A stretch of DNA of 63,932 bases, the filler included, from Neolecta irregularis DAH-3 (lineage: Eukaryota), in the NCBI GenBank assembly GCA_001929475.1. It is 5 parts of 5 records of this genome, joined end to end, with 100 filler letters (N's around TTAATTAATTAA, not from the genome) between each part and the next. Parts side by side here need not be neighbours in the genome. Positions count along the whole stretch, not along the records: positions 40,602 to 61,145 come from LXFE01001054.1; 4 more parts are not named here. One strand, written 5' to 3'. The notes under the pieces were generated by a model that was given only the letters and a program-made list of their open reading frames with translations, was not told the origin of the DNA and did not search any database. Positions 40,602-60,187 of this stretch are shown piece after piece. Position 1 is the stretch's first letter. Each line of letters starts with the position of its first letter. A program made the position numbers and the translations under genes.

Positions 40602-41044
40602 AAGCTAGGCGACATCTCCATGACCGAAAGGACTTCCTTTGAAAGTAGTCAATGATCTATGACCCCTTTAGTCCTGGTACTTTGTGGAGCGCACCAAACG
40701 CGCACCTGAAATTCCAATATGTTAAAAGTCACATTTTATGAAATTTAGTGCGAACCAAACGCACCCTTTTTTATGAAATTTGAAGGTGTGAAATTTGAAA
40801 TCTATTTCGCACAATTCCAAAAAACCCGTTTGGCAGTCCCTTGCCAAATTTTACAAAGTAGCAATTCCGTATCACTGATCTCTTTACATAATAAAGAAAA
40901 TGAGGCTATCTTGTGGTTGCAAGACGCGCGTGTAAACTCTGAATTTCATGAAATTCTGGGAGTGATCTGCGAACGCACCTCAGTTTTGAAATGTAAACAG
41001 ATGTTTTGAACCACACATCGCAACGCGGCGCCTTCACCTCCACC

Positions 41045-57806: not shown

Positions 57807-57933
57807 TCTCGAATATTAGAAGTGCGTCAACACGGAATCGCACAAGTTGAGGTTTGGGCTGAGACATGATTTCGTGTTCCCGATTTCACCCTCCACCGGA
57901 AAATTTCTTTCAATCTCCTAAATATCCTATAGA

Positions 57934-60187
57934 ATGAAATACGTAATTGTTTCCGGAGGTATAGCGACTTTAGACTTGCTCTTGCTGACTAATTTCAAGG
58001 TGTTATCAGCGGCATTGGCAAAGGCGTTATCGGTACGAGAAATATTTCAAGCTGGATGGTGTATAACCTATAAAGCGTCGTCGACGGGATTACTCCTCAA
58101 AACTACAGGCCTAAAGATTTGTGATTCGTTCTGCAACAATGACTGATCATATTACGTTTCCGCGATCAAAGTTGATCCTTATATGAACATCGACGCGGGA
58201 ACCATGAGTCCTCTGGAACACGGTATCATTGGAACTCAAAAGGATATGTTGGCTTATTTATAGGTGAAGTTTTCGTTCTGAATGATGGCGGAGAAGTCGA
58301 CTTGGACCTTGGAAACTACGAAAGATATCTTAATATCACCTTAACGAGAGATAACAACATCACGACTGGCAAGATTTATATTCAAGTCATAGAAAAAGAG
58401 GTACATGGCTATTGTTTCCATGTTTTAACTGTCCTAGAGGAAAGGAGCTTATCTCGGAAAGACTGTTATGGTTGTACCTCACATCACAAATGAAATTCAA
58501 GACTGGCTCGAGCGAGTTGCGAAAATTCCTGTTGACGACACCGGAGAAGTTCCGGATGTTTGTATCATTGAAGTATTCTGTTTCTGTAACACTTTGATAT
58601 TGATTAATAGCTTGGAGGAACGGTTGGTGACATCGAGGCTGCGCCTTTTGTTGAAGCAATGCGCCAATTCCAATTCCGTGTTGGTCATGAAAATTTTGCC
58701 TTGATTCACGTCTCGCTCGTTCCTATCGTAGGAGGTGAGCAGAAAACTAAACCAACGCAAGTCGCTATCAGAGACCTCCGCGGACTCGGGTTAACTCCCG
58801 ACTTAGTATGTTGATCCAACGTGTTACCAATTGATACGTCTAGATTGCTTGTCGATGCCCGAAACCATTAGAAAAAAGCGTTATCGACAAAGTTTCCATG
58901 TTTTGCCATGTTGGTCCCGAGCAAGTACTTGCCGTTCACGATGTTTCATCTACCTACCATGTCCCACTCCTATTAGAACAGCAGAACCTCGTCCGATTCT
59001 TAACCAAAAGACTCAATTTACAACCTAATTCAATTCCAGATTCCTTGAAAGCAACTGGTAGCAACCTGTGGGGAAGATGGAAGGAGCTTACTATTGCGTA
59101 GGCTATAAAATTACGAGACTATTCTAACTGCAGACACGATCGCTTGTTTGGAGAGGTCAAGATTGCTTTAGTTGGAAAATACGTCAATCTTCAAGATTCC
59201 TACATCAGTGTCGTTAAATCTCTTGAGCATGCCTGCCTTAAAGTTGGAAAGAAGCTTAGTTTGGATTGGGTCGATGCTTCAGATTTGGAAGTAGAAATGA
59301 ATTCTGAGAACCCACAAAAATACCACAAAGCTTGGCACGCGTTATGTTCTGCCAAGTATACTCTTACTATAACGAAGCTAGCGTAACATTTTAGTGGTGT
59401 TCTTGTCCCTGGTGGATTCGGAACTCGTGGTACTGAGGGAATGATTGCCGCGGCCAAATGGGCTCGCGAAAATAAGAAACCGTATCTTGGAATCTGTCTC
59501 GGTCTTCAAATCGCGGTTATTGAATACGCTCGGAATGTGTGTGGAATCCAAGGTTTGTCACATCTTTTCTTGTCATATGAGAGCACTACCCCATCGGCCT
59601 AACGCCTGCTCAAATCCAGAATTTACGAAATTAGTCTAGATGAACCATCTCATATGACAACGACTCTTATGTTCTTTAGCTGATTTAATTTAGGGGCACA
59701 TTCGGAGGAACTAGTGTCAGGAATAGAAAATAAACTAATTGTCTTCATGCCAGAAATCAGCAAGACACATCTTGGAGGAACAATGAGACTAGGTCTGCGA
59801 CTCACTCTCTTCCAGCCAGATGCCGAAAATTGCAAGATGCGCAAGTCATTATCTCGTCTTTCATACTAATGTTTAGGCCAGCTATATGGCTCTTCTACCA
59901 TTCATGAACGACATCGGCACAGATATGAAGTAAACCCCGACTACGTTGACAGGATCGAACAAGCTGGACTTCGGTTCGTAGGTCGAGATGAAGAGAACAA
60001 ACGAATGGAAATTTTCGAGTTGAACTGTCATCCTTGGTATGTAGGCACTCAGTATCACCCCGAGTATTTGACTCGACCTCTGGATCCAAGCCCCCCATAT
60101 TTTGGGTTTATTGCCGCTAGCGCCGGTGTCTTGGATGAAATTCTTTCAAATATTCAGAAACGACCGAATGGAATACATAAAATCTAG
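57934..60187 (+). CDS. URA7: CTP synthase (about 11 introns)
   Basis: [63 protein letters not shown] (glutaminase Cys), [10 protein letters not shown] and QYHPEY. Confidence 0.97.

Follow-up and report, generated by a model that had tools for sequence, protein, structure and literature searches.

An AT-AC intron interrupts CTP synthase in Neolecta irregularis

The window analyzed here is the whole stretch of 63,932 nucleotides, filler included, assembled from five parts of the Neolecta irregularis DAH-3 genome (GCA_001929475.1), in which positions 40,602 to 61,145 come from record LXFE01001054.1. This part holds a CTP synthase gene (Table 1). With all 11 introns taken out, the window sequence encodes an open CTP synthase of 574 amino acids. 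Two of its exons matched the Pfam families CTP_synth_N and GATase, a DNA search found the stretch in single copy in the genome, and a named protein record with 100% identity over the query exon was N. irregularis CTP synthase. By taxonomy look-up, the species belongs to the Taphrinomycotina. A DUF155 (RMD1-like) gene lies on the opposite (minus) strand, with an apparent start at 57867, which leaves only 66 nt to the ATG of CTP synthase.

Intron 3 of the 11 sits in phase 0 between Lys33 (AAG) and Val34; it starts with ATTTGT and ends with TATTAC. The initial annotation had read this interval as a 39-nt AT...AC intron of local size, with a CTGAT motif near its 3′ end and an in-frame TGA, and each of these readings held. 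The AT and AC ends are present and the intron is skipped exactly in a transcript-like contig described below, 9 nt follow the putative branch A of CTGAT, nine of the other ten introns measure 36 to 43 nt (the tenth is 141 nt), and the in-frame TGA ends at 58146, closing an open reading frame that runs from 57922. The annotation was also right that splicing at the nearby 51-nt GT-AG pair would delete the conserved VSAIK, since by sequence reading it would put IF in place of VSAIKV. The public Neolecta protein model contains GLKVSAIKV and lacks 16 amino acids just upstream of the GC-AG intron 11.

Table 1. Features of the CTP synthase gene around intron 3, in window positions
Feature	Position	Strand	Remarks
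CTP synthase (URA7-like) gene	57934..60187	+	12 exons, 11 introns, 574 aa
Exon 3	58076..58116	+	Ends ...AAAG; Lys33 codon AAG
Intron 3, AT-AC, 39 nt, phase 0, U2-type by its signals	58117..58155	+	Gene model and X2 joint 58116->58156
Intron 3 5′ splice site, ATTTGT	58117..58122	+	+4 to +6 TGT complementary to ACA of the genome's U6 ACAGAGA box
Intron 3 branch-site motif, CTGAT	58143..58147	+	Putative branch A 58146; the motif's TGA is the in-frame stop
Intron 3 3′ splice site, TAC	58153..58155	+	Gene model and X2 joint
Decoy GT-AG pair	58121..58171	+	Its GT occupies +5/+6 of the intron 3 donor; unused in the X2 contig (contigs drop rare forms)
Exon 4, VSAIKVDPY...	58156..58222	+	Gene model
Intron 11, GC-AG	59841..59876	+	Gene model; spliced in X2

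The AT-AC junction is used in a transcript-like contig

Two sequencing runs cover the CTP synthase stretch: X1, a DNA run, and X2, which is labeled "DNA?", a guess. X2 yielded one 3,165-nt contig that lacks all 11 introns, and because each of the 11 skips is exact, we infer that X2 is cDNA. Its joint from 58116 to 58156 corresponds to AT..AC ends with no ambiguous letters, and the contig coordinates allot 142 nt to exons 2 to 4, which is the exact expected sum. The RNA evidence consists of one contig, from a single run that shares its study with X1. Among the X2 contigs, which drop rare forms, none retained intron 3 or spliced it differently. The X2 contig also reaches 1,207 nt upstream of 57800, perhaps through the merging of divergent transcripts, and X2 differs from the window by a single T>C at 59059.

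The initial annotation had proposed checking both termini in the reads and the junction in cDNA. The X1 contigs (depth, about 455) agreed with the window at every letter of intron 3, and the X2 contig used the AT-AC joint and no different junction. An error in the assembly, or use of the neighboring GT-AG pair as splice sites, would draw some support from the fact that X1 is perhaps the assembly's own source and hence dependent on it. Against either stand the exact, unambiguous X2 joint, the public protein that already reads through to VSAIKV, and the same ends kept in 85 other loci among the matches listed (see below); both are effectively refuted.

Intron 3 carries major-spliceosome signals

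The donor AAG/ATTTGT matches the U2-type consensus except at +1, having G at −1, +5G, and +6T. It can form five Watson-Crick pairs with the genome's U1, within the range of four to six of the other ten introns of the gene, and three of three pairs with the ACA of U6, which is true of only 3 of the 11 introns. From the sequence and from excerpts of PMC11585973, the TGT at +4 to +6 would pair with U6 ACA. The donor of intron 10 in the same gene is GTTTGT, and +5G/+6T is missing in 7 of the 10 other donors. At the other end, CTGAT agrees with the U2-type pattern of CTRAY close to a YAC end. The initial annotation had stated that the intron lacks the U12 consensus, and this was confirmed: the intron begins with ATTTGTG where a U12 donor would read RTATCCT, and a CCTTAAC-like branch site is absent. 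Intron 3 is thus U2-type by all sequence tests, and it would be expected to depend on U2.

As the initial annotation had suggested, the genome was searched for minor-spliceosome RNAs. None of U11, U12, U4atac, and U6atac was matched among 40 to 50 candidates scored in this incomplete assembly, in a search that had no eukaryotic positive control for the minor families; the same search recovered all three major or shared RNAs, U6 (70 bits), U5 (65 bits), and U1 (43.7 bits, below the cutoff). This outcome is consistent with absence of the minor RNAs. An insensitive search for zf-U1 proteins returned U1-C, one weak match, and one chance match, with no clear ZMAT5; the weak match has a motif that we take to be like that of WBP4. 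The U6 gene itself (L001; G000:C1963:269-417, minus strand) is split by an intron, GTAAGT...TAG and roughly 50 nt long, that directly follows the ACAGAGA box and holds a B-box-like GTTCGAGAC. The U6 gene of fission yeast has a similar intron. In excerpts of PMC10639083 and PMC11347168, minor introns and minor snRNAs are reported to be absent from Ascomycota, and the former reports that early-diverging fungi retain minor introns.

AT-AC ends are shared by orthologous introns in Pezizomycotina-like loci

The initial annotation had proposed comparing this intron position in other fungal CTP synthases. We searched metagenome contigs for the beginning of the downstream exon with YAC or YAG directly before it and with no constraint on the 5′ end, a pattern that is blind to intron losses and to AAG or AAC ends, and obtained at least 115 loci. 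Among the matches listed, 86 of these had a readable intron at the site, and in 85 it was an AT-AC intron at the same codon; the remaining one was GT-AG, and mixed ends (AT-AG or GT-AC) were found in none of the 86. The other 29 loci among the matches listed comprised 26 without an intron, mostly prokaryote-like and some animal- or protist-like, and three that were set aside: L108 was spurious, L170 was broken off inside the intron (ending in CAC), and L086 (L086:321-350) was ambiguous, its TAG abutting the same Val and its donor unclear. Counted as distinct sequences among the matches listed, 63 of 64 introns were AT-AC and 1 was GT-AG. The recurrence of these ends at one codon, in 63 of the 64 distinct introns, shows that AT-AC at this site is no chance effect.

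The donors of the AT-AC introns among the matches listed were ATATGT (35), ATAAGT (22), ATTTGT (2), and four others found once each. All 63 had +5G and +6T, compared with 21 of 43, 12 of 41, and 33 of 58 copies of the neighboring introns 1, 2, and 4 in the same matches, and positions +3 to +6 carried 6.42 bits of information versus 2.79, 3.56, and 2.96 bits, respectively. The branch motif CTGAC was present in 46 of the 64 listed introns, against 13/39, 12/37, and 10/44 in neighbors with a detectable motif, and lay with its A 8 to 16 nt from the intron end. AAG at the exon end (63/64 in the matches listed) was weakly above two control Lys codons (57/64 and 51/64). Among the same matches, positions +7 and +8 carried 0.10 and 0.21 bits and intron length ranged from 39 to 73 nt. 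The U12 donor RTATCC occurred in none of the 64 listed introns, and the loose U12 branch motif CCTTRAY occurred in one.

The single GT-AG intron belongs to a Dothideomycete-like locus, L135, which in a quick tree was nested among AT-AC loci (SH-aLRT, 90 to 92). Its donor, GTGCGA, is weak and decayed, as expected of a revertant freed from compensation; with both ends changed, it is a natural double revertant.

Using a named protein set without a Sordariomycete, we placed 58 distinct carriers among the matches listed by protein similarity in six Pezizomycotina groups, the other six being too short; the best-matching named proteins of these listed carriers are, by the class to which we assign their genera, Dothideomycete (28), Leotiomycete (10), Lichinomycete in the wide sense (9), Lecanoromycete (6), Eurotiomycete (3), and Pezizomycete (2). 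There was no basidiomycete-like or Mucoromycota-like locus among the 86 listed. Introns 1 and 2 are also common to Neolecta and the Pezizomycotina-like loci. Intron 4 of Neolecta (window 58223-58263) falls in phase 1 of Gly56, a position that it shares with L069 and L111, both animal-like. Pezizomycotina-like loci either lack an intron there or carry one 5 nt farther upstream, in phase 2 of Glu54.

The AT-AC intron damages the public annotation of CTP synthase. Queried from downstream of the intron, 52 of 85 named Pezizomycotina models (one labeled partial), 1 of 24 Basidiomycota models, and 1 of 6 Taphrinomycotina models failed an intact-junction test, counts in which 90% cluster representatives may overrepresent bad models and other nearby introns may cause some of the breaks. 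Among the 52 broken models, 11 had Lys followed by Ile or Met and 14 had His or Tyr before Val, the residues encoded by the two ends of the intron.

The intron probably dates from the ascomycete ancestor

In a quick tree, the Neolecta protein was sister to all 54 carrier rows (SH-aLRT, 92). A full-length tree placed it outside Pezizomycotina with support of 100 and otherwise followed the species groups; an AU test with Neolecta and Pezizomycotina as one clade gave no rejection (p = 0.349). In Pneumocystis oryctolagi, from a second class of Taphrinomycotina, the protein model reads K-I-W-EVFV. This would be the expected product of an ATH-T-GT donor mis-cut at +5, and hints at a Pneumocystis intron. 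The models of Saitoella, Savitreella, Taphrina, and Protomyces are intact, and intact models tell nothing about intron presence; the one further protein from a cluster look-up was another of Saitoella.

These data are most simply read as one origin, no later than the ascomycete ancestor, and the CTP synthase AT-AC intron was probably present in that ancestor, which lived several hundred million years ago. As a Taphrinomycotina copy, the Neolecta intron pushes its history to the base of Ascomycota. The initial annotation had called it a rare U2-spliced AT-AC intron; the U2 type is upheld by the X2 joint and the splice signals, and the implied private rarity is not, the intron being old and shared. 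It is highly improbable that the AT-AC ends arose independently in Neolecta under a loose splice-site code, or came by gene transfer. In favor are the seven donors of the gene without +5G/+6T, the second probable AT-AC intron described below, and the AU test. Against it, the codon, the phase, and the very rare ends are those of 85 Pezizomycotina-like loci among the matches listed, introns 1 and 2 are shared with them too, intron 4 stands at the animal-like position and not at that of Pezizomycotina, the tree keeps Neolecta out of that group, and the Pneumocystis signature adds to this.

Other AT-AC candidates in the Neolecta genome

Pattern searches of the genome gave 2 matches to a strict AT-AC pattern versus 3 to its control and 12 rows (11 sites) for a looser pattern versus 18 for its control. 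The canonical version of the looser pattern matched only twice in 294 kb, hence few introns are visible to it; 59 stretches of the genome served this count alone. The one other site matched by the strict pattern is a probable AT-AC intron of 46 nt in a malate dehydrogenase gene (L180; G000:C2555:67990-68035, minus strand), ATATGT...CAC with a CTAAT branch motif, whose removal gives a gap-free match to residues 245 to 258 of PDB 5zi2. Of the 10 other looser-pattern candidate sites, one lies in an open kinase frame. Another of them, ATATGT...TAC, is also 46 nt long (L190; G000:C3018:12437-12482, plus strand), and its removal joins two open stretches. A shared set of old AT-AC introns found no support here: U1-C intron 1 and the two ISU1 introns read GT-AG in Neolecta.

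Discussion

Our best explanation, which we consider likely, is that intron 3 is a constitutive U2-type ("type II") AT-AC intron that came down from the ascomycete ancestor. Judged by what is known of splicing, the major spliceosome would read it through pairing of U1 and U6 at the donor and of U2 at CTGAT. At the second step, a non-Watson-Crick A(+1)-C(−1) pair would replace the usual G-G pair, and the near-fixed +3A, +5G, and +6T together with the strong branch site may offset the lost +1G. Tolerance of the A-C pair by the major spliceosome is reported from a yeast suppressor (PMC1557818, section 20) and from structural modeling (10.1101/212811; PMC11585973, in excerpt). An intron of this kind could be caught in an evolutionary trap, in which a change at one end would break the terminal pair in an essential gene and escape would require that both ends change or that the intron be lost. 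Retained copies would be NMD targets like those of any retained intron, with no dedicated regulatory role.

The need for both ends to change together is the most likely cause of the intron's persistence. A "trapped" AT-AC intron model is set out in section 16 of PMC2831892, and between them that section, section 20 of PMC1557818, and the excerpted 10.1101/212811 put both mechanism and trap in print. The pattern reported here, in which the ends change together or stay and compensation relaxes after the switch to GT-AG, appears to fit this model, as judged from one revertant. Against the trap, the reversion in L135 demonstrates a crossing of the valley, and the 63-to-1 retention among the matches listed would be equally expected under selection for AT-AC.

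Such selection is the core of one alternative, which the initial annotation had raised as a rate-limiting or NMD-coupled control point: the AT-AC ends would be kept because they brake the expression of CTP synthase through slow splicing or coupling to NMD. CTP synthase is a rate-setting enzyme, the ends are conserved across two subphyla, and among the matches listed retention yielded a frameshift in 40 copies and an in-frame stop in 24, so that all 64 ended in one or the other and none stayed open. Section 20 of PMC1557818 also reports AT-AC rescue as less efficient than GT-AG. Retention of the neighboring ordinary introns is nearly as disruptive, however, breaking the frame in 138 of 142 listed cases (open in 1/43, 2/41, and 1/58), and for 15 of the 24 in-frame stops in the matches listed the branch motif supplies the TGA or TAA. 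Neither the retention outcome nor the interior sequence of the 64 listed copies was more conserved than in ordinary introns; +7 and +8 are unconserved, and length varies between the limits given above. The other signals are strengthened, a sign of selection for efficient splicing, the ends in L135 are GT-AG, and the X2 contigs offer no retained or alternative form, a weak point given that contigs drop rare forms. The proposed control function thus found no support, with neighbors that break the frame too, an unconserved interior, and a GT-AG copy, and we consider a brake improbable.

Another alternative starts from the suggestion in the initial annotation of a U12 relic, namely that a former U12 AT-AC intron moved to the major spliceosome by a +5 C-to-G change near the loss of the minor spliceosome in Dikarya. 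This route, proposed for animal type II introns in section 16 of PMC2831892, needs no two-step valley. The commonest donor, ATATGT (35 of 63 in the matches listed), has four letters in common with ATATCC, minor introns are kept in early-diverging fungi (PMC10639083, in excerpt), and L086, from a nonfungal eukaryote, may carry an intron at the site. Against this origin, the 64 listed introns contain no RTATCC and a single CCTTRAY, GTATG is common in the neighboring ordinary introns too, and the combination of phase 0 and an AAG/G context is a hallmark of major introns (PMC11347168, in excerpt). By our judgment of taxa, five animal-like loci and one alga-like locus are intronless here (L069, L081, L093, L128, L111, and L065), and the 86 readable loci listed include no basidiomycete-like or Mucoromycota-like one. 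Among 88 named models from early-diverging fungi, 87 continue across the site uninterrupted, mostly with Arg preceding Val, in a set ranked by whole-protein score that favors intact models (its least biased part being 15 of the 16 top Glomeromycota models) and in which intact models are compatible with a correctly annotated intron. With no U12 donor in the 64 listed orthologous introns, and no sign of the intron in the minor-spliceosome lineages covered by these indirect data, the relic claim was not borne out, and we think a U12 origin unlikely. A broader version also seems to us unlikely. In it, the intron would belong to a limited group of ascomycete AT-AC introns that outlasted the minor spliceosome; as a U12 intron it would have been handed straight to the major spliceosome and then held, for as long as the phylum has existed, among the first codons of a gene essential for nucleotide synthesis, its slower terminal pairing perhaps tuning CTP synthase output. 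A literature search found no paper on CTPS1 as a minor-intron gene.

Returning to the inherited U2-type intron, its splicing mechanism is already known, which limits the surprise. The interest lies in an obligatory major-spliceosome AT-AC intron common to two ascomycete subphyla, where such introns are barely documented. The idea of the trapped AT-AC intron (PMC2831892, section 16) becomes directly testable, with many natural variants, one GT-AG revertant, and tractable laboratory fungi. In openly available main-article full text, we found no paper on a CTP synthase AT-AC intron, and excerpts of PMC7072748, PMC3033335, and PMC2846911 contain no mention of one.

The CTP synthase intron is a member of the rare but known U2-type AT-AC class. 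PMC1557818 (Table 1 and section 20) counts 24 such introns in five genomes, and the fungal cases in those parts of the paper are only hypothesized xylanase ones. Like the animal introns of SCN4A, SCN5A, and TAF2, the Neolecta intron has a +5G/+6T donor, strengthened +3 to +6 positions, and long-conserved ends. Unlike them, it is fungal and 39 nt long, and it lies in an essential metabolic gene of a lineage for which absence of the minor spliceosome is reported; the donors at this site form an ATAWGT family (ATTTGT in Neolecta), not a strict ATAAGT, and U2 dependence is experimental for SCN4A and SCN5A, whereas in Neolecta it is deduced from the signals. U12-type AT-AC introns of animals, plants, and early-diverging fungi (excerpts of PMC10639083, PMC2846911, and PMC3033335) resemble it in terminal dinucleotides only, since it has neither the ATATCC donor nor the CCTTAAC branch site and the minor snRNAs were unmatched in our genome search. 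The nested AT-AC intron of Saccharomyces cerevisiae RPL30 (PMC5029451, in excerpt) likewise occurs in an ascomycete without a minor spliceosome, but it is a 1 to 2% alternative event with a nonconsensus donor, whereas the CTP synthase intron must be removed to make the protein and is conserved across subphyla. The engineered yeast G1A mutant with its last-base C suppressor and the P-complex model of pairing between first and last base (PMC1557818, 10.1101/212811, and PMC11585973, in excerpt) share the terminal A-C and the major spliceosome with our case; the A-C pair in the structure paper is a modeled one, whereas in CTP synthase the combination is natural and fixed.
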